Below are positions 4,718 to 24,285 of a stretch of 64,000 nucleotides of DNA, in pieces. Both the position numbers and the translations under genes were made by a program. Below the pieces are notes generated by a model that saw only the letters and a program-made list of their open reading frames with translations, searched no databases and was not told where the DNA came from. This stretch comes from an uncultured bacterium. GTDB taxonomy: Bacteria > Spirochaetota > B62-G9 > DRHN01. The stretch covers positions 847-64,846 of the forward strand of contig CBFDDP010000002.1 of assembly GCA_965603595.1 (NCBI GenBank), written 5' to 3'. Position 1 is the first letter of the stretch. Each line of letters begins with the position of its first letter.

Positions 4718-4777
4718 ATGAAGTCAGCACTGTTTAACATCGTGGTTGATTGGTGGTGGTGGACCGGCTCCCGGTAG
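4718..4777 (+). CDS. Trp-operon-type leader peptide of 19 aa, MKSALFNIVVDWWWWTGSR, with four consecutive Trp codons.
   Basis: ATG at 4718. TGG TGG TGG TGG at 4751-4762. TAG at 4775-4777. Immediately followed by alternative hairpins and a terminator upstream of trpB2. Confidence 0.6.
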   Translation: MKSALFNIVVDWWWWTGSR

Positions 4778-4846
4778 GAGTGGTCCATCCGGTTCGAAGA
4801 ACTGCACCGTGGACTTCTCCACCGGGAGAAGCCCACGGTTTTTTTG
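4745..4846 (+). promoter_or_regulatory. Transcription attenuator with Trp-codon control: segments 1:2 pause/anti-antiterminator, 2:3 antiterminator, 3:4 terminator.
   Basis: TGGACC (4759-4764, overlapping the Trp codons) can pair with GGTCCA (4783-4788). GGAGTGGTCCA (4778-4788) is nearly complementary to TGGACTTCTCC (4810-4820). Terminator: CCGTGGACTTCTCC (4807-4820), ACCG, GGAGAAGCCCACGG (4825-4838), then TTTTTTT (4839-4845). Confidence 0.55.
4807..4846 (+). terminator. Rho-independent attenuator terminator (14-bp imperfect stem plus a U7 tract).
   Basis: Inverted repeat CCGTGGACTTCTCC / GGAGAAGCCCACGG followed by TTTTTTT. Confidence 0.6.
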
Positions 4847-4855
4847 TGTACTAGA

Positions 4856-4886
4856 GGCCGTGGGATACACATCCCGCGGCTTTTTT
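4856..4886 (+). terminator. Second, tandem hairpin plus U-tract downstream of the attenuator.
   Basis: GCCGTGGGA (4857-4865), loop, TCCCGCGGC (4872-4880, one mismatch), then TTTTTT (4881-4886). A further perfect hairpin GTGCGCCC/GGGCGCAC lies at 4892-4911. Confidence 0.4.
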
Positions 4887-4972
4887 AAATTGTGCGCCCG
4901 GCAGGGCGCACCATCTGGAAAGAGGCACACATTTTTGAGGGTGTATATAAATCTTTATTGAAGGAGAGTGCA

Positions 4973-6337
4973 ATGGAAAGAACAAAGTATGTTCTGGACG
5001 AAAAGGATTTACCAACGAAGTGGTACAACATTCAGGCGGACCTTCCTGAGCCCCTGCCCCCGCCACTCCATCCGGGAACAGGACAGCCCCTCGGACCGGA
5101 GGATCTGGCTCCCCTGTTTCCCATGGAGCTCATTAAGCAGGAGGTGAGTCAGGAGCGATTCATCGAGATTCCCGAGGAGGTGCTCGATATCTACAAGCTG
5201 TGGCGCCCCACGACTCTGTTCAGGGCCCGCAGGCTCGAGAAGGCCCTCGATACCCCGGCCAAGATCTACTACAAGTACGAGGGGACAAGCCCTCCCGGCA
5301 GCCACAAGCCCAATACCTCTGTACCGCAGGTCTACTACAGCATGAAGGAGGGGATCAAGCGGATTTCCACAGAAACAGGTGCAGGTCAGTGGGGAAGCTC
5401 TCTTGCCTTTGCTGGCGCATGTTTCAATGTTGATATCAAGGTGTATATGGTACGTATTTCCTACAATCAAAAGCCCTATCGCCGGGTCATGATGCAGACA
5501 TGGGGTGCGGAGTGCGTTCCGTCGCCTTCACCGGACACGAATGCCGGAAGGAGCATGCTCGAGCGTGATCCTGACTGCCCCGGAAGCCTCGGGCTTGCCA
5601 TTTCAGAGGCTGTAGAGGATGCCGTGTCCCGCGAAGATACCCATTATTCTCTCGGGAGCGTTCTCAACCATGTGCTGCTGCATCAGACCGTTGTCGGTCT
5701 CGAGGCAAAGGCCGTGCTCGAGGATATCGGCGACTATCCCGACATTCTGGTCGGCTGTGTGGGAGGAGGTTCGAATTTTGCGGGGCTATTCCTGCCCTTC
5801 CTGAAGGACAAGATCGATGGCAAGAAGCCGGACCTGCGTGTCGTCAACGTGGAACCTGCGAGCTGCCCCACTCTGACAAGAGGGCCCTACGCCTACGATT
5901 TCGGTGATGAGGCAGGACTCACACCCCTGTTGAAGATGTTTACCTTGGGGCACGGTTTTATCCCACCGCCCGTGCATGCGGGGGGTTTGCGCTATCACGG
6001 CATGGCGCCCATCGTCTGCCATCTGCTGAACATCGGACTGGTCGAGGCAGTGGCCATACATCAGCTCGAAACCTTCGAGGCAGGCATCACCTTTGCGAAG
6101 AACGAGGGGATCATCGCAGCGCCTGAAACCGACCACGCGATCAGGACAACTATCATAGAAGCTCTGAAGTGCAAGGAGACGGGAGAAAAGAAGACCATAC
6201 TCTTCAACTGCAGCGGCCACGGTCACTTCGACATGAGTGCCTATGAAGCATACCTGGCAGGCAAGCTGCATGATTACGAGTACCCACAGGAAAAAATCGA
6301 GCAGGCACTCAAGGACCTTCCGAAGGTCCCTTCCTGA
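4973..6337 (+). CDS. trpB: TrpB2-type tryptophan synthase beta-like PLP enzyme (stand-alone indole-scavenging type).
   Basis: The [28 protein letters not shown]-terminus is typical of the TrpB2 family. PLP-enzyme motifs ([14 protein letters not shown]) are present. The ATG at 4973 sits behind a perfect AAGGAGA RBS. The listed longer ORF from 4892 has no RBS. Confidence 0.85.
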
Positions 6338-16420: not shown

Positions 16421-16821
16421 AACAATCGGTACTGTTTATCTGCACCCACAATTCCGCCCGTTCACAGATGGCGGAGGGGCTCTTGAATCACTTCCGCGGT
16501 GACAGTTTCAGGGGATACAGCGCCGGTATCGAGGCGACCCGCGTGCATCCCTATGCAGTGCGCGCACTTGCCGATATCGGTATCGATACAAGCGGGCATC
16601 GTTCTAAAACGGTTGAAGAGTTTCAGGGAGAAACCTTCGATACAGTTGTAACCGTGTGTGACAATGCGCGTGAGTCCTGTCCCTTTTTCCCGGGAAGAAG
16701 GGTGATTCACCGGAGCTTTCGCGACCCGTCGTGCACGGAAGGAAGTGATGCTGAAATACTACAGGACTTCAGAGAGGTGCGGGACGAGATACGGGCCTGG
16801 ATCGATGAGGAGTTTATATGA
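16417..16821 (+). CDS. arsC: Arsenate reductase of the LMW-PTP, thioredoxin-coupled type.
   Basis: The [14 protein letters not shown]-loop (CX5R) with downstream Cys residues. 134 aa. Confidence 0.85.
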
Positions 16822-17570
16822 GCTCCTCCATCTTGTGTTTCACTGCCGCATAGACGCCCTTTCCCCTATTCTCCATGATTGTTCGCACAAAAGCTGAGCC
16901 CACGATTGAGGCGTGCACATGGGGTGCAAGAAGATCTATCTGCTCTCGATGAGAAATCCCGAAACCTGCAAGAATCCTGATCTCCCTCTTACCGGTGGCA
17001 GTGCTGATCCTTCGTAAAAACCCGATGTTGTCGTCTCCTATCTCTGTGACCTTTCCCGTTATACCCTTTCTGAGCGCAGCGTACAGGAAGCGTGGCTCAG
17101 AATGGAGTATGGATTCCAGCCGCTGCGGCCCTATGGTGGGAGCAACCACAGGTACGGCACTCATACCATACTTCTCTGACAGGCGGAACAGGTCTTCATC
17201 ATAGTCAAAGGGCAGGTCAGGAACGATGAGCCCCTGTACCCCCTGCTGCGCGCAGCTATCGATAAAGGCTTCAACACCGCTGTGGAACAGGGTGTTCCCG
17301 TAGCACATGATGAAGATGGGGGTGTCGGATATCGCACGAATACTGCTTACAAGCTCGAACCCGCGCCTGACCTTGAATCCATTTTCAAGGGCTTGTGTAC
17401 AGGCAGTCTGAATGGCAGGCCCGTCTGCTGTTGGGTCGCTGAAGGGGAACTGTATCTCCAGATAGGTACTCCCTCCGTCTATCATGGCAGCGGCGACTTC
17501 CATTGAACTGGCCCCATCGGGATAATAGGCCACCATATGAGTCATCAGCCTATGCTTCATCTTCTCTTCC
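16814..17570 (-). CDS. trpA: Tryptophan synthase alpha chain.
   Basis: MKHRLMTHMVAYYPDG...YLEIQFPFSDPTADGP...GFGIS is the TrpA pattern. The start ATG was mapped at 17570-17568. The listed 419-aa ORF is an upstream in-frame extension overlapping trpB. Confidence 0.9.
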
Positions 17571-18827
17571 TTCCTGCAGGAGAAAATCTCTCCAGCCTTT
17601 TCCGGCAAGCTGCTTTGCCAGTATGAAGAGGTCCTTGTCTCCGCGTCCGGACATGTGGACAATAATCGCCCGGTTTTCGGGCAGTTCAGGTGCCATTTCC
17701 AGTGCCGCTGCTCCCGCATGTGCTGATTCGAGGGCGAATATGAGGCCTTCATGGGAGGCAAAGAACCGAACCGCTGCAAGCGATTCATCGTCGCTCGCAC
17801 TGGTGAATTCGATACGGCCATCCTGCCCCAATCTGGCGAGCTGTGGACCGATTCCTGGATAATCGAGACCGGCCGATATGGAGTGTGTTTTCCCGACCTG
17901 CCCGTCATCGTCGAGCAGGAACAGAGATTTGTAGCCGTGTACAATACCGGGTCTGCCGAAGCCCCCCATCCTCGCAGCGTGTTCTCCCGGGCCTGAGCCT
18001 CTGCCGCCAGCCTCAACCCCGACGAGGCGCGGTTTCTCACGGCCAAGAAAAGGCGCGAAGAACCCGATTGCATTGGACCCTCCGCCCACGCAGGCGATGA
18101 GCGCCTCGACTTCCAGGCCCAGTCTTACCATCTCCTCCTCAACCTCTCTGCCAATGACTGACTGGAACTCCCGGACCATATCGGGGTAGGGTGAGGGCCC
18201 CAGGGCTGAACCGATGAGGTAGTGGGTGGATGTGAAGCTTCCCGCCCAGTCCCTGAGAGCCTCGTTGATAGCATCCTTGAGCGTTTTGGAGCCCGAAACA
18301 ACGGGAACGACCTCGGCCCCGAAAAGCTCCATCCAGAAAACGTTGGGCCGCTGCCGCCACATGTCTATTTCACCCATGTACACACGGCACTTCAGGCCGA
18401 GCTTTGCGCAGGCAGCCGCGGTCGCCACACCATGCTGGCCGGCTCCTGTTTCAGCAATGATTCTTTCCTTACCCATGCGCTTGGCGAGCAGCGCCTGGCC
18501 CAGCGCATTGTTGATCTTGTGGGCTCCCGTGTTTGCAAGGCCTTCGAGCTTGATATAGATTTGGGCGCCACCGCAGCTGTGGGTTGCGTTCTGTGCAAAG
18601 AGAAGAGGTGTCGGTCGTCCCGCATAGGAGACCAGAAGGTCCTGTAGTTCTGAGCAGTATGCATCGCTATCCATGCTCTCTCGCCAGGCTATCTCGAGTT
18701 CATCGAGGGGTGTCCTCAGTATCTCGGCAACGTAACGACCGCCGAAATCACCGAAATAGTCGTTGTATATCCCTTTCACCTGCTTCTCCTCATTACGATG
18801 GGGTTCATGTATCTGTATCCATGCCAT
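17550..18827 (-). CDS. trpB: Tryptophan synthase beta chain (TrpB1 type).
   Basis: NDYFGDFGGRYV, the PLP Lys in GAHKINNALGQ, and GGGSNAIG. Start MAWIQ mapped to the ATG at 18827. The listed 557-aa ORF is an artefactual extension. Confidence 0.9.
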   Translation of the reverse strand: MAWIQIHEPHRNEEKQVKGIYNDYFGDFGGRYVAEILRTPLDELEIAWRESMDSDAYCSELQDLLVSYAGRPTPLLFAQNATHSCGGAQIYIKLEGLANTGAHKINNALGQALLAKRMGKERIIAETGAGQHGVATAAACAKLGLKCRVYMGEIDMWRQRPNVFWMELFGAEVVPVVSGSKTLKDAINEALRDWAGSFTSTHYLIGSALGPSPYPDMVREFQSVIGREVEEEMVRLGLEVEALIACVGGGSNAIGFFAPFLGREKPRLVGVEAGGRGSGPGEHAARMGGFGRPGIVHGYKSLFLLDDDGQVGKTHSISAGLDYPGIGPQLARLGQDGRIEFTSASDDESLAAVRFFASHEGLIFALESAHAGAAALEMAPELPENRAIIVHMSGRGDKDLFILAKQLAGKGWRDFLLQEGREDEA

Positions 18828-20274
18828 AAGAACCGGTGATCTTGCATATGCCTTCGATTTCCTTGAAGAATTGTACCATGATGCTAGAGTCCTTGGTCCC
18901 GGGTTCGGATTCAAGCCTGCTCGAGGCGTCGATGAGTTCCGGCTCAAAGGAGCTGATAATCTCTGCAACGTTATCGGGTCCGATGCCCCCTGCCAGCCAA
19001 AGAGGGTGCAGCCTGCGGACAGACTCGATGAGTTTTGTCGATATCCTCTGCCCTGTGCCCCCGGGTTTTCCGGGAACGAAGGCATCGACCAGGACCCGGG
19101 GGCAGTGGAAGGAGTCGATACGCTCCACATCCTCATCTCCCCCGATCCGCAGGGCCTTGTAATAGGGAAAGGCCGCCCTGTAGCAGTTGTCCGGGTGCTC
19201 ATCACCATGAAACTGCAGGGCATCTATGCATCCTTCCGACAGAAGCCTGTTCACGGCGCTATCGATCGACCGGTCCTCTTCCCCATGCACCACGACTGCC
19301 ACCTTGAGCTGTTTGAGGTCGGTGATTCTTTCGGGAAGTCCGGGATCCGCACATCTGGGTGAATCGGCAAATATGAAACCAAGTACATGGGCACCCAGTT
19401 CCGCGGCGAGCCGGGCATCCCGTTCCCTGGTGATTCCGCATATCTTCACCAGCGGCTTTCCTTCAGCCATGGAGGAGAAGAGGCGGTACCAGAAATCTCC
19501 AATGCCTTCCCGCTCGAGGGCGGTTATCCGTCCGATGAGGTCTGTATCCCTCATCGCACCTTCGCCGATGAGCATTCCTGTAAAACCGCCGGACAGGGCA
19601 ACTGCCGCATCCTCGGTGGAGCGTATACCTGATTCAAAAACCGTACGGGTACTCCAGTCTATGGATTTTTTAAGGGCAAGAGGGACTGCCGGATCAATAC
19701 GAAAGGTCGCTAAGTTCCTGCTGTTTATTCCCGTTATATCAGGCTGCACCAAAGCTGCCTTACTGAGGTCCTCGCGGTCGTGTACTTCAAGGAGAACCTC
19801 GAGACCGAGGCTCTTTGCCCTGCGATACAGTCTGCCCAGTGTGCCTGCGTCATGCATGGAGGCAATGAGGAGTATTGCATCTGCCCCTGCCCTGTAGGAA
19901 ACCGTGATATCATCCTCATCGAGAATGAAATCCTTCCGCATGACGCAGAGGTCAGGGAAGGAGTTCTTGATCCTGAACAGGTCCTCCAGTGAACCGTGAA
20001 AATATGTCTCCTCGGTGAGGACTGAGAGGGTTTTAATTCCCCTCTTGGCGTAGTGTCCGGCCTGGCGGACTGCATCAGCTTCCACTGCAAAGATCCCGCG
20101 AGACGGTGAGCCCCGCTTGACTTCACTGGCAATGAAAAAATCCCTGCCCGGCTGCAGTCTTCCGAAGGGAACAAGGGGTACGGTTCTGCGTCGAGGAAGG
20201 CTGCGCCCCATACTGGGGCCCAGGCGAGCGATACTCCTCTTTCTCGCCTCGACGATTTCATCGATGATACTCAT
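18805..20274 (-). CDS. trpC: Bifunctional indole-3-glycerol-phosphate synthase / phosphoribosylanthranilate isomerase (fused TrpC-TrpF).
   Basis: An N-terminal IGPS pattern followed by a PRAI domain starting near [11 protein letters not shown]. 489 aa. Overlaps trpB by 23 nt. Confidence 0.85.
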
Positions 20275-21887
20275 GCGCCTACCCCCCTCTCCCGTAGTGT
20301 GAGCCCGACCTTTCTGATCTCATCCAGTTTCTCCGCAGTCCTTCCCGATTCCAGAGCCTCAAGGGCAGCCCTGTACCCCTCTGCAATCCCCAAAGCCTTG
20401 CCGGCAACGTAGAGGGCTGCACCTGCATTGAGAGCCACTGATTCTCTCAGGGTGTGATTTCCGCCTCCTCCCAGCAGCTCCAGGGCAATGTCGGCGTTGT
20501 CTTCCGGTGTACCGCCCATGAGATCATCCATGGAACATTCTTTAATACCCAGCTCTTCTGGACGGAGGAGATACTCGACAGCCCCATTCCCACTTCCGGT
20601 TTCCACAACGGTTGTGGGTGCGCACACCGAGATCTCGTCGAGACCGTCGTGGCTATGTACAGCCATGACTTTTTTCCTTCCAAGCATATGGGAAGCCTGT
20701 GCCATGGGTGTACAGAGGTTCCCGCTGTAGACGCCGAGAAGCTGGAAGTCAACGTCAGCAGGATTGATGAGTGGTCCGAGAAGGTTCATCACCGTTTGAA
20801 TACCGAGCTCTCTTCGAACAACTGCAACGTGCTTCATCGAACGGTGATAGAGAGGGGCAAAGAAGAAGGCGAATCCCGTTTGCTGCAGGAGCTTCTCTGC
20901 TTCATCGGGCTGCAGATCGATCGGGATACCGAGCCGCTCATAGAAATCGGCACTCCCGGAACGGGAACTGACGCTTCTGTTCCCATGCTTGGCGACCCGT
21001 ACACCGCAGGATGTGGCAATAAGCGCAGCCATGGATGATATATTGAAGGTCCCGGAATGGTCTCCTCCTGTACCACAGGTATCGATGCAGGGTTCCGTGC
21101 TGTGCACCGACAATTTCTTTCGGTTCAGGACAGAGGCAAGTCCGTAGAGCTCTTCTGCCGTAACCTGCCTCGTGTTCATGGCTGTAAGAAAGGAGGCGGT
21201 TTGCGCTTCGGTGAGTTCTCCGTTTGTCATCTCCTCCATAATCGATGCGGCCTGCTCCCCGGAGAGTTCTTCACCTGAAAGTATGTGTGTTATGATGTCG
21301 GGTATATTGAAAGGTTCCCGAATGTAGTGGATGAAATTTTGCAGGATCTTCTTGCCGTATTCCGACGCGATGGATTCGGGGTGAAACTGAACACCCTCCA
21401 CGACGTGTTCCCGGTGCCGAATACCCATGATTTCCCCGTCTTTTGTGAAAGCGGTTATCTCCAGCTCAGGCGGAAGGGTCTCGCGATACACGGCCAGAGA
21501 ATGATAGCGTGTCAGCCTGACGGGTGAGGGTATGTTTCTGAAGAGACCTTTGCCGTCATGGACGATGTCATCGGTTTTACCGTGCACGATGCTGTTGGCC
21601 CGCTTTATGGAGCCACCGAAGGCGTACCCGATGGCCTGATGGCCAAGACAGACTCCCAGTATCGGTATCCTGCCTGTGAAGTGGGTGATCACTTCAACCG
21701 ATATTCCAGCCTCATCGGGTCTTCCAGGACCGGGTGATATGAGTATGGCTTCCGGACACAGGTCTTCGATGCGGGGGATATCGATACGGTCATTCCTGAA
21801 CACCTGTACCTCGCCGTCGTAGAGCTGCGTTATGTACTGATAGAGGTTGTAGGTAAAAGAGTCATAGTTGTCGATGATGAGAATCAT
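20271..21887 (-). CDS. trpD: Bifunctional anthranilate synthase component II (glutamine amidotransferase) / anthranilate phosphoribosyltransferase (fused TrpG-TrpD).
   Basis: N-terminal class-I GATase ([15 protein letters not shown]...GVCLGHQ) followed by the TrpD motifs DTCGTGGD and KHGNRSVSS. 538 aa. Confidence 0.85.
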
Positions 21888-21889
21888 GA

Positions 21890-23389
21890 TTACACCTCCA
21901 TTCCCAGTGATTTACCGAGGGCACGTAATTTTTCAGATGTTTCCTCGAGCTCCCGTTCCGGGACAGAATCCCACACAATGCCTGCTCCCGCCTGCAGAAT
22001 AAGCAAATCATCCTTGCGCAATGCGCTCCGGATGGTGATACAGGTGTCAAGGGAACCATCGGGTTCGATATACCCCACTAGACCGGCATAGAAGCTGCGG
22101 GCGCACTCTTCGAGTGAGTCAACGATTTCCATGGCTCGTATTTTCGGTGCCCCGGATACCGTCCCTGCGGGGAAGGTTTTTCGTATTGCCTCGATTCCCC
22201 TCCTGTCCGGCCTGAGCTCACCCTCAACCTGCGATACAATATGCATCACATGTGAGTAATGCTCTACTGCATTGAATTCCGTAACCTCCACGGTACCGGG
22301 AACGCACACGCGGCCCAGGTCATTGCGTGCGAGGTCTACGAGCATCAAATGTTCGGCCCGCTCCTTTTCATCGGAAAGAAGTTCTTTCTCCAGTGCCAGG
22401 TCCTCTTCCCGGGTTTCACCTCTCCGGCGCGTGCCGGCGATGGGTCGGGTGATGACGCGATTCCCCTCGACTTTGACGTGCATCTCAGGGGAAGAGCCGA
22501 AGAGCTGAAATGAGCCGAAATCAAGGAAAAACATGTAGGGTGAGGGGTTGAGAGAGCGAAGCCGCCTATAGGCTTCGAGGCCCGGCATCTCGGTTTGAAG
22601 AATGACCCGTCTCGACAGCACACCCTGCAGTATGTTCCCCTTCTTTATTTCCCGACGTATCCTGATAACCCCGTCTGTAAATCGATCCTTTTCTGAATCG
22701 GGACTCAACATGATACACCCATACTCTCTCTGAGAGGGGCTCAGATAATTAAAGTCCAGATCGTGTATGCGTTCTTCGGTCTCGTCAACCGCGCGTTCAA
22801 GGTTTATTTCGAAACCGTCATAGTTCAGGGCCACGATGGAGATAGTGTCAGTGTAGTGATCAAAGATAAGAAACAGGTTGCCGCACATGAATGCCGCCTC
22901 TGGCAAACCCAGGCTGTCGATCTTCGACTTCAGACGTACATCATCGAAATGGCGCGCAAACTCATAGCTAAGATAGCCGATTCCGCCTGCGGGGAAGGGA
23001 AAACTGCGGTGTTCCTCTCTATGCTGGTCTGCCAGGGACTGAAGAACATCAAGGATGTCTCCTGACGGAGAGTGGGCTCCTGACGGTGCGTGAGTACCTG
23101 ATGCAAAATTGGCTCCCGACCATGTACGGGCCCCTGTCGAGGAGTGCTCTGTACCCTGTGGCAGGGGAAACACCTCGCCGTCACGGACAAGGGTTATGGA
23201 CCCGCCATCTTGCTGAACCTTAAATGCTTCCTTCACCAGAATGAGTGAGAACCGTGCCTTGCCCCTGGCAAAGGAAGCTGATTCGAGTAGTGCCCGTCCG
23301 TCCAGCTTTCTATACAGCGAATAGGGGGTGAATTTTTCCCCTGAAATGACCCTGACCATGCTGTTTTTTATCTTTCTCTCAGTTCGCAT
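21890..23389 (-). CDS. trpE: Anthranilate synthase component I.
   Basis: Chorismate-binding-enzyme pattern (LESA, GYLSYE, RGxYAGxVGY). An AGGAGG RBS lies 7 nt upstream of the ATG. Preceded by the attenuator. Confidence 0.9.
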
Positions 23390-23418
23390 GAGCTTTTCCT
23401 CCTGAAGAATATTCCCTC

Positions 23419-23458
23419 AATAGAAAAAGGCCGTAAAACCGAAATCGGTCTTACGGCC
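23419..23458 (-). terminator. Attenuator terminator of the trp operon on the minus strand.
   Basis: Minus-strand transcript GGCCGUAAGACCGA, UUUC, GGUUUUACGGCC, then UUUUUCUAUU, about 30 nt upstream of trpE. Confidence 0.6.
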
Positions 23459-23468
23459 TGTACGAAAC

Positions 23469-23510
23469 AGGCCGCAGAACCTGGCTTGTCTGAGCCAGAA
23501 CCTGCGGCCT
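23469..23510 (-). promoter_or_regulatory. Attenuator upstream hairpin (9-bp AGGCCGCAG/CUGCGGCCU outer stem with a nested CUGGCU/AGCCAG stem). Its 3' arm can alternatively pair with the terminator's 5' arm as an antiterminator.
   Basis: Perfect inverted repeats read directly. CGGCCU (3' arm) is complementary to AGGCCG at the start of the terminator stem. Confidence 0.5.
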
Positions 23511-23534
23511 ATCAGGTGAACGCACTGGTTCCGG

Positions 23535-23612
23535 CTAGTGCCAGAACCACCACCGGTTGTTATTGTTCGATGTAATCACTGTATCGAAACCCTGCATTTT
23601 TTTCTCACTCAT
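23535..23612 (-). CDS. trpL: Trp operon leader peptide of 25 aa, MSEKKMQGFDTVITSNNNNRWWFWH, with 3 Trp codons in the last five positions.
   Basis: Reverse complement of 23535-23612 reads ATG ... CGG TGG TGG TTC TGG CAC TAG. It sits between a TTGACA promoter and the attenuator hairpins. Confidence 0.55.
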   Translation of the reverse strand: MSEKKMQGFDTVITSNNNNRWWFWH

Positions 23613-23635
23613 TTCTACTCTGTAGAAGTTGACCT

Positions 23636-23663
23636 AGGATACCCTATGCTCATGAAATGTCAA
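23636..23663 (-). promoter_or_regulatory. Putative sigma70 promoter of the trp operon (minus strand): TTGACA -35 at 23663-23658, 16-nt spacer, TATCCT -10 at 23641-23636.
   Basis: Reverse complement of 23636-23663 reads TTGACATTTCATGAGCATAGGGTATCCT. Confidence 0.35.
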
Positions 23664-23673
23664 GAGAAATCGG

Positions 23674-24285
23674 TCACATGCGTACAAAATCGTTGTGCCG
23701 CTTCTCCTCTCCAATGGTGGTGTGCTCACCATGTCCGGTATACACCCTGGTGTCATCGGGTAGCACGTAGAGTCTCTGAAGTATACTGACCCGCAGATCT
23801 TCCGCTGAACCTGTGGGAAGGTCCGTCCTTCCCACAGAGTGGTAGAAGAGGGTGTCGCCTGCAAAGAGCATATCCCTGATCCTTATACAGATACTTCCCA
23901 CCGTATGGCCCGGTGTGTGTATGACCTCAAGATCGGTTCCGTCAAAGGGGAGCCTGTCCCCATCTTCGAGAAGCTTATCTGGTGCTACGGAGATATAGGG
24001 AGAGTCAACCATGATAGAGAGGTTCAGCCCCGGATTCAAAAGCATTGTATAATCATACTTGCTGACAACCAGTGTGGTGTCGTAGCGGGCTTTCAGTGCG
24101 TTGTTGCATCCGATATGGTCGTAATGCCCGTGCGTATCAATTATATAGAGGAGTTTTCGCTTGCCTATTTCCGGGTAAATGAGTTCGGGGTTCCCTCCGG
24201 GATCGATTACAACTGCCTCCTGTTCATTTCTCAGGATATAGCAATTTGATGACATGATGCCCAACACTTTTGGTATCAGCTGCAT
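23674..24285 (-). CDS. MBL-fold metallo-hydrolase (hydroxyacylglutathione hydrolase-like).
   Basis: HxHxDH motif IDTHGHYDHIG and downstream His/Asp ligands. 203 aa. Confidence 0.75.
   Translation of the reverse strand: MQLIPKVLGIMSSNCYILRNEQEAVVIDPGGNPELIYPEIGKRKLLYIIDTHGHYDHIGCNNALKARYDTTLVVSKYDYTMLLNPGLNLSIMVDSPYISVAPDKLLEDGDRLPFDGTDLEVIHTPGHTVGSICIRIRDMLFAGDTLFYHSVGRTDLPTGSAEDLRVSILQRLYVLPDDTRVYTGHGEHTTIGEEKRHNDFVRM

Follow-up and report, generated by a model that had tools for sequence, protein, structure and literature searches.

Does a tryptophan operon that resembles that of Escherichia coli in gene order, gene fusions and regulation have to derive from an enterobacterium? The question is raised by 64,000 nucleotides of contig CBFDDP010000002.1 from an uncultured bacterium of the Spirochaetota (the window, as we call this whole stretch), in which a complete trpE-trpGD-trpCF-trpB-trpA operon is preceded by a Trp-rich leader open reading frame (ORF) and an intrinsic terminator. 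A sequence-only reading of the window, made before the present analysis, took this architecture as a hallmark of Enterobacteriaceae and raised the possibility that the entire regulated operon had been acquired horizontally. Our comparisons lead elsewhere: with a probability of roughly 0.88, the leader is a ribosome-mediated attenuator, mechanistically of the E. coli trpL type, that controls the complete operon in Spirochaetota and has been inherited within that lineage. The leader elements and their mutually exclusive helices are present in the window, both folds are conserved and show covariation among relatives, and the Trp proteins are placed with those of Spirochaetota; Trp-dependent read-through is what these structures, when modelled, predict.

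All elements of the leader lie on the minus strand. A putative sigma-70-like promoter at 23636..23663 consists of TTGACA (23663-23658), a 16-nt spacer and TATCCT (23641-23636), and gave 10 of 12 matches in a consensus scan; its -35 hexamer and spacing are kept in two related loci, L001 and L088, where the -10 hexamer is TATATT. Sequence inspection and an ORF scan place a trpL-like leader peptide ORF, presumably translated, at 23612..23535 (MSEKKMQGFDTVITSNNNNRWWFWH; 25 codons, UAG stop). An alternative in-frame ATG at 23597, which aligns with the start codon of the related leaders L082 and L088, would give a leader of 20 codons. Three of the last five residues are Trp, encoded at 23552-23550 (W21), 23549-23547 (W22) and 23543-23541 (W24). 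When all ORFs of 8-45 codons on both strands of the window were considered, 14 had a WW or spaced triple-W pattern and only two had at least three Trp within five residues, one directly upstream of trpE and the other directly upstream of trpB2, a trpB paralogue.

The RNA downstream of the promoter is highly structured. The 251 nt at 23390..23640 fold into three successive hairpins at -105 kcal/mol (z score -8.3), and none of 200 dinucleotide shuffles folded as well. In the minimum free energy (MFE) fold, hairpin 1:2 (23526..23549, -17.4 kcal/mol) joins segment 1 (23549-23540), which overlaps codons W22-F23-W24, to segment 2 (23535-23526, GCCGGAACC), which begins at the last base of the leader stop codon; the stop codon itself lies in the hairpin loop. 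The long nested hairpin 3:4 (23467..23512, -33.6 kcal/mol) comes next, and a terminator scan places an intrinsic terminator, 5:6, at 23424..23459 (-24.1 kcal/mol), with a 14-bp GC-rich stem (23459..23428), a 4-nt loop and a U-run, approximately 34 nt ahead of the trpE ATG at 23389. Segment 3 holds a copy of GGUUCUGGC from segment 1, and because the two segments share this sequence, segment 2 is able to pair with either of them; helix 2:3 has an energy of -22.0 kcal/mol. The antiterminator 4:5 (23447..23481, -23.8 kcal/mol) pairs the 3' arm of 3:4 (23481-23467) with the 5' arm of the terminator (23461-23447). Taken singly, the five helices are similar in stability. Most of this had been anticipated by the sequence-only reading: its TTGACA promoter and 25-codon Trp-rich leader are both located on the minus strand, its long nested hairpin corresponds to 3:4 (23512..23467), its CGGCCU/AGGCCG antiterminator is the core of helix 4:5, and its strong terminator, given as 30 nt before trpE, is close enough to the approximately 34 nt found here. 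It had also proposed a structure prediction for the leader RNA, which yields the three hairpins and the mutually exclusive antiterminator.

By default the leader folds as 1:2, 3:4 and the terminator 5:6. To represent a stalled ribosome with W21 in its A site, nucleotides were masked through 23537 and the transcript was ended at 23445, before segment 6; the MFE structure (ViennaRNA) then became 2:3 plus 4:5. With the ribosome mask placed at the stop codon, 3:4 persisted and segment 5 was free for the terminator. These folds suggest the following sequence of events. Transcription would begin at the TTGACA promoter, and the leader ORF would be translated during RNA synthesis. With charged tRNA-Trp plentiful, the ribosome would reach the UAG in the loop of 1:2 and cover segment 2, segment 3 would pair with segment 4, and segment 5 would be left free for the 5:6 terminator to form, stopping RNA polymerase about 34 nt before trpE. 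With charged tRNA-Trp scarce, the ribosome would stall with W21 or W22 in its A site, covering segment 1 and leaving segment 2 free to pair with segment 3, the bearer of the GGUUCUGGC copy; segment 4 would thereby be released to pair with segment 5, no terminator would form and the operon would be transcribed.

Related loci carry the same design. W-rich leaders occur in at least 15 of them, in Spirochaetota metagenome-assembled genomes (MAGs) and metagenome contigs, with a terminator after each of the examples listed here. The leader endings upstream of trpE are FFWWWFWQ in L001, AWWWFWM in L033 and L085, NWWWWT in L003 and YWWWFWQ in L082, and further Spirochaetota relatives have NWWWFWG (L084), YWWGFWH (L088), CWWCWI (L083), AWWWPVV (L002 and L004) and LWWW.SG (L006 and L008; for example LWWWVSG). 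The sequence-only reading had held that absence of the leader ORF from close relatives would weaken the attenuator call; the ORF is present in them. In a systematic scan, 32 of 137 loci had an ORF with at least three Trp in seven residues upstream of trpE; on the reverse complement, used as a control, the number was 2 of 137.

We aligned nine leaders (window, L001, L082, L088, L033, L085, L084, L083 and L003), for which RNAalifold yields the three hairpins. In the terminated fold 93.4% of cells are paired, compared with 32-52% in slid controls, and 15 of 41 pairs carry compensatory changes; 0 of 500 shuffles reached the observed values. By element, 1:2 is 92.6% paired, 3:4 is 95.7% paired with compensatory changes in five pairs, and the terminator 5:6 has compensatory changes in 8 of 16 pairs. 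The alternative fold, 2:3 plus 4:5, is conserved to a similar degree (93.0% of cells paired versus 30-55% in slid controls, both-side changes in four pairs), with helix 2:3 100% paired in 9/9 sequences and helix 4:5 87.7% paired with three covarying pairs. Alignment column 106 covaries with column 66, to which it pairs in helix 3:4, and also with column 121, its partner in helix 4:5; such dual covariation is the signature expected of a switching element. The covariation analysis proposed in the sequence-only reading gives 15/41 compensatory pairs and an alternative fold paired as above, and the comparative support for both folds is good but not exhaustive.

Several observations weigh against a ribosome-mediated switch of this kind. 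The -10 hexamer TATCCT is weak, and the leader ORF has a poor Shine-Dalgarno sequence. The full-length RNA keeps the terminated fold as its thermodynamic minimum, stalled ribosome included, so the switch must be kinetic, as in the classical E. coli model. In the truncated-transcript simulation 3:4 is retained in four of the nine homologues. A ribosome stalled at W24 would cover most of segment 2, where read-through is not expected, and the geometric fit is therefore good for the first two Trp codons only. The alignment is small, with nine sequences and an effective number of 1.8, and there is little covariation in segments 1-3 because UGG codons constrain them.

Could the hairpin and U-run do something simpler, and merely end the cluster that lies upstream of the trp operon (by Pfam an EF-G paralogue, dtd and an MBL-fold hydrolase), with the small W-rich ORF there by coincidence and no sensing involved? 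The weak -10 hexamer fits this, and only about 215 nt separate the end of the MBL gene (23674) from the terminator downstream of it. However, loci with different upstream genes (L003, L033, L082-L085) keep the W-rich ORF as well as the three hairpins and the alternative pairings; L003 and L033 have no MBL, dtd or EF-G match within 10 kb, yet the leader is kept. The excess of W-rich upstream ORFs over the control, the second copy of the design ahead of trpB2, and a promoter scan that found no promoter-like site between the terminator and trpE all speak against it as well. A terminator that merely ends the upstream operon is rejected on conservation grounds, and we give a coincidental leader very little credence. 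About equally improbable is that termination is set by another factor, namely a T-box sensing tRNA-Trp, a TRAP-like RNA-binding protein or a Trp riboswitch, although these are the other known routes of trp operon attenuation (PMC6614838). Searches with Rfam returned no Trp_leader, T-box or other cis-regulatory family in the whole window at gathering thresholds, and for the leader (23300..23750) at E <= 10 they returned chance matches only (scaRNA, miRNA and the like), with no Trp_leader, T-box or other cis-regulatory family. No TRAP-type GAG/UAG repeat array was seen on reading the sequence by eye, no formal scan having been made. The UGG codons in segment 1 of a conserved short ORF are, by comparison, exactly what the ribosome model needs.

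The origin of the operon can be addressed gene by gene. Pfam bears out the gene content given by the sequence-only reading, including both fusions, all on the minus strand: trpE, anthranilate synthase component I (21890..23389, 499 aa, Anth_synt_I_N and Chorismate_bind); the fused trpG-trpD (20271..21887, 538 aa, GATase at residues 3-186, Glycos_trans_3N and Glycos_transf_3 at 197-517); the fused trpC-trpF (18805..20274, 489 aa, IGPS at 48-251 and PRAI at 276-471); trpB, tryptophan synthase beta (17550..18827, PALP), whose start is uncertain between ATG 18827 and a GTG near 18779; and trpA, tryptophan synthase alpha (16814..17560, Trp_syntA). The TrpE protein was searched against GTDB species representatives and the best 80 matches were kept. 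The best of these are Spirochaetota MAGs (L001 at 69%, L033 at 70% over a partial sequence, L003 at 59%, L002 and L004 at 57%), followed by L005 (Sediminispirochaetaceae) and L008 at 55%, L006 at 53%, Treponemataceae at 43-51% and some Planctomycetota at 48-51%. In L001, the nearest relative, synteny extends over 10 genes, with the EF-G paralogue, dtd, MBL, trpE, trpGD, trpCF, trpB, trpA and a DHH gene in common and identities of 51-77% both in the flanks and in the trp genes; TrpB, at 77%, is at the top of this range. Many other loci from Spirochaetota, and two from Planctomycetota, also have the E-GD-CF-B-A order together with the two fusions.

Transfer of the whole regulated operon, with leader, fusions and gene order, from Enterobacteriaceae would account for the resemblance to E. 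coli trpLEDCBA in gene order, in the two fusions and their domain order, and in having a leader peptide and a terminator. We nevertheless regard it as having next to no chance of being right. Identity to E. coli K-12 (L081) is 35% for TrpE, 39% for TrpGD, 32% for TrpCF, 53% for TrpB and 28% for TrpA, well below that to L001 in the same lineage. There is no enterobacterial genome among the best 80 GTDB TrpE matches, and by TrpE distance from the window E. coli ranks 79th of 80. In a neighbour-joining tree of 81 TrpE sequences (372 columns, without support values) the window and L001 are sisters within a clade of Spirochaetota. For the G, D, C, F, B and A domains taken separately, the best matches likewise come from Spirochaetota. 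For TrpG, 67 of 68 loci score higher than E. coli, as do 58 of 61 for TrpD, 50 of 54 for TrpC, 32 of 40 for TrpF and, for TrpA, 34 of 34. E. coli is thus at or close to the lowest rank for all domains but TrpB, for which it is mid-range and 15 of 37 loci score higher. The leader points the same way: the Rfam Trp_leader model scores 93 bits on E. coli and finds no match here at E <= 10, and a model built from the present leaders (R1, below) has no match to the E. coli leader.

The fusions themselves can be compared domain by domain. TrpG proteins of Chloroflexota and Omnitrophota share 55-61% identity with the G domain of the window, the fused G domain of E. coli only 40%; in the Dehalococcoidia loci whose frame was checked (L016 and L040) that TrpG is a separate gene. 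This pattern speaks for independent origins of the fusions. On domain-wise identities we reject a recent derivation of either fusion from E. coli.

Composition gives no hint of foreign DNA in the sense of the sequence-only reading, which had suggested comparing the trp genes with their flanks. GC content at third codon positions (GC3) is 0.603 in the trp genes and 0.602 +/- 0.040 in the other 39 ORFs of the window (Mann-Whitney p = 0.71), and codon-usage distance does not differ either (Mann-Whitney p = 0.75); in that reading's own terms, compositions that cannot be told apart argue for vertical inheritance. Its other criterion, Trp trees that agree with the host lineage, points the same way as far as the TrpE tree and the domain matches reach. 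Its operon, leader, terminator, antiterminator and pair of attenuators therefore stand, and what falls is the enterobacterial part. The architecture is no hallmark of Enterobacteriaceae, given that all Trp domains are nearest to Spirochaetota and that order and fusions are native there, and horizontal acquisition of the whole operon is contradicted by the Spirochaetota best matches, the flank synteny with L001 and a composition equal to that of the flanks. On these comparisons the operon is evidently native to its Spirochaetota lineage, and its resemblance to that of E. coli is evidently convergent or ancient, not a sign of recent transfer.

An older exchange is a different matter. The operon type may have moved between phyla earlier, from Spirochaetota to Planctomycetota or the reverse, which would be a real transfer that involves no enterics and is not recent here; we consider this unlikely, but worth taking seriously. 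In the TrpE tree three Planctomycetota MAGs, L007, L010 and L011, fall within the Spirochaetota clade. L010 shares the gene order E-GD-CF-B-A and the two fusions, at 44-66% identity, and W-rich leader ORFs followed by terminators are present at all three loci as well. The nesting is read from the unsupported 372-column tree, however, and mis-binning is possible in MAGs. The planctomycete leaders are moreover longer, run past their Trp codons and have no R1 match, so that the leader seems not to have been co-transferred; examples of their peptides are CWWRGNWWR... and LLWWRNNWWWR.... Nothing puts the genome of the window on the receiving end. Inheritance of the regulated operon within Spirochaetota remains our preferred account of the window.

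Does the leader belong to a known RNA family? The gathering score of RF00513 (Trp_leader) is 41 bits; as a positive control the model scored 93.1 bits on E. coli trpL, and it had no match to the leaders of six relatives. We describe the leaders by R1, a covariance model built from the nine aligned trpE leaders. R1 scores 103-133 bits on the leaders it was trained on, including 132.9 bits for the window leader, itself a training sequence. Outside the training set it matches the trpB2 leader (43.2 bits), L002 (37.5 bits), L006 (33.8 bits), L089 and L090 (31.9 bits) and also L004, all within 32-43 bits. The traits of the R1 family are a C-terminal peptide motif of the WW.FW type and GGUUCUGG repeated in segments 1 and 3. 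The window leader matches R1 over its full length, its Trp codons fall in segment 1 and GGUUCUGG recurs in segment 3, in keeping with the family definition. On balance, and by a modest margin of confidence, we favour the view that the leader represents an uncatalogued six-segment Trp attenuator family across Spirochaetota that is absent from Rfam and has two copies in this genome (trp operon and stand-alone trpB2), and that the E. coli-like package of gene order, G-D and C-F fusions and leader-peptide attenuation is convergent in spirochaetes. In the literature we found no trp leader described from Spirochaetes, although the 2008 trp-operon review, Xie et al. 2003 or the Russian-language surveys cited in PMC4833913 may mention such leaders. 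A passage of PMC6614838, citing the 2008 review, names Spirochaeta among the groups with trp genes split into several operons.

At the edges of the family the design varies. Apparent four-segment leaders are found in the Spirochaetia relatives L002 (9876-9994) and L004 (9875-9992), where the second hairpin, GCCGCAGGUUCCGG...CCGGGUCCUGCGGC with a U-run, is the terminator; with these included, the leader family varies between four and six segments. Upstream of trpE, R1 also gives weaker matches in MAGs from Desulfobacteraceae (one) and Armatimonadia (two), whose leader ORFs contain RNWWWH and CWAWCWP. In further phyla, W-rich leader ORFs followed by terminators were seen ahead of trpE in L049 (9450-9553) and L071 (5019-5125), both Armatimonadia, in L070 (2087-2202, Desulfobacteraceae) and in L078 and L079, the motifs in this group being CWAWCWP*, RNWWWHNS, SWWWAM and YWWYWRK.

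The second copy in the genome lies at 4718..4893 on the plus strand, upstream of trpB2 (4892..6337), whose product is 32% identical to TrpB. It has the same six-segment design, with a leader ORF and three hairpins, two of them U-tailed. The ORF (4718..4777, MKSALFNIVVDWWWWTGSR) ends in DWWWWTGSR. R1, built from trpE leaders only, matches this leader over its full length (43.2 bits, E = 1.5e-8), its fold has a z score of -6.4, and a stalled-ribosome simulation gives 2:3 plus 4:5. From sequence and fold the trpE and trpB2 leaders look like members of one family, and the R1 score bears out the earlier suggestion of two Trp-sensing attenuators in this cell. The two U-tailed hairpins stand in tandem, at about 4806-4845 and about 4863-4893, and in this model either or both may terminate transcription.

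How does the leader compare with attenuators that are already known? Like the trpL leader of E. coli and Salmonella (RF00513), it has Trp codons clustered in a short ORF, followed by an intrinsic terminator before trpE and a mutually exclusive antiterminator, with a ribosome stalled at UGG codons as the deciding element; the downstream gene order and the G-D and C-F fusions are also alike. The E. coli trp leader has four pairing segments, whereas here there are six, making three hairpins and two alternative helices. There are also three Trp codons (WWFW) in place of two, a peptide of 25 or 20 residues in place of 14, and a stop codon in the loop of hairpin 1:2, and neither RF00513 nor R1 detects sequence or structure homology in either direction. 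The six-segment relay has the topology of the enterobacterial his leader, in which the hairpins A:B, C:D and E:F alternate with B:C and D:E and the stall signal is relayed via the middle hairpin to the terminator. The his leader senses His through seven His codons; amino acid, operon and lineage thus all differ, and no homology is claimed. The family-level architecture is common to the window and the Spirochaetota trpE leaders L001, L003, L033, L082-L085 and L088. Ribosome-dependent Trp attenuators outside the enterics have been described as Sinorhizobium meliloti trpL/rnTrpL and in Corynebacterium and Streptomyces (PMC6614838, PMC1262725, PMC4833913). The Sinorhizobium attenuator controls only trpE(G), and its released RNA and peptide act in trans (PMC6614838, PMC7298713). 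The Sinorhizobium and actinobacterial attenuators belong to different lineages, and similarity to them was sought via Rfam only. By analogy with Sinorhizobium peTrpL/rnTrpL, the conserved WW.FW-stop peptide or the released attenuator RNA might act in trans here too.

The attenuator in the window is a textbook mechanism in a less familiar group and not a new mechanism. A complete trp operon governed by leader-peptide attenuation is no mark of enterobacteria, given that this arrangement is native in Spirochaetota together with both fusions, and this is a caution against inferring horizontal transfer from operon architecture alone. Related W-rich leaders are found in Planctomycetota, Armatimonadota, Desulfobacterota and other phyla, and leader-peptide control of trpE appears to be phylogenetically widespread, in agreement with PMC6614838, PMC4833913 and PMC1262725. 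The leaders add a well-supported RNA family that curated libraries lack, and its annotation would improve regulon prediction in uncultured spirochaetes. With attenuators ahead of both the trp operon and trpB2, a single genome also offers a natural comparison of Trp-sensing leaders that have different terminator arrangements.

Some smaller features of the leader region bear on translation. In the MFE fold the terminator U-tail (23427-23422) pairs with AGGAAA (23400-23395) in the trpE Shine-Dalgarno region around a small hairpin, and in this model the pairing (23395..23427) could add a translational layer in read-through transcripts. The first leader ATG in the window lies about 17 nt from the predicted transcription start. 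In L001 (3420..3460) the leader ATG follows the kept -10 hexamer TATATT by about 8 nt, a spacing that suggests that the L001 peptide may be translated from a leaderless or nearly leaderless mRNA.

The same locus is found elsewhere and with a different trpE start. An identical locus occurs in metagenome assemblies (Logan SRR26215687, SRR26215680 and SRR26538809; ENA ERZ25073477), and in exact look-ups TrpGD and the EF-G paralogue were matched in metagenome assemblies only. The exact look-up of the 499-aa TrpE gave no match because gene callers begin TrpE at Met11: in the public gene calls for the identical metagenome locus (L163-L165) the protein has 489 aa, the difference lying in 23359..23389 on the minus strand. 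The ATG at 23389 has an AGGAGG Shine-Dalgarno sequence 8 nt upstream, much stronger than that of the Met11 start in the public calls. The N-terminal domain of TrpE carries a 29-residue low-complexity insert (approximately 23057..23143 on the minus strand, residues ~83-111), and its Pfam N-terminal match extends over 164 residues for 136 model positions.

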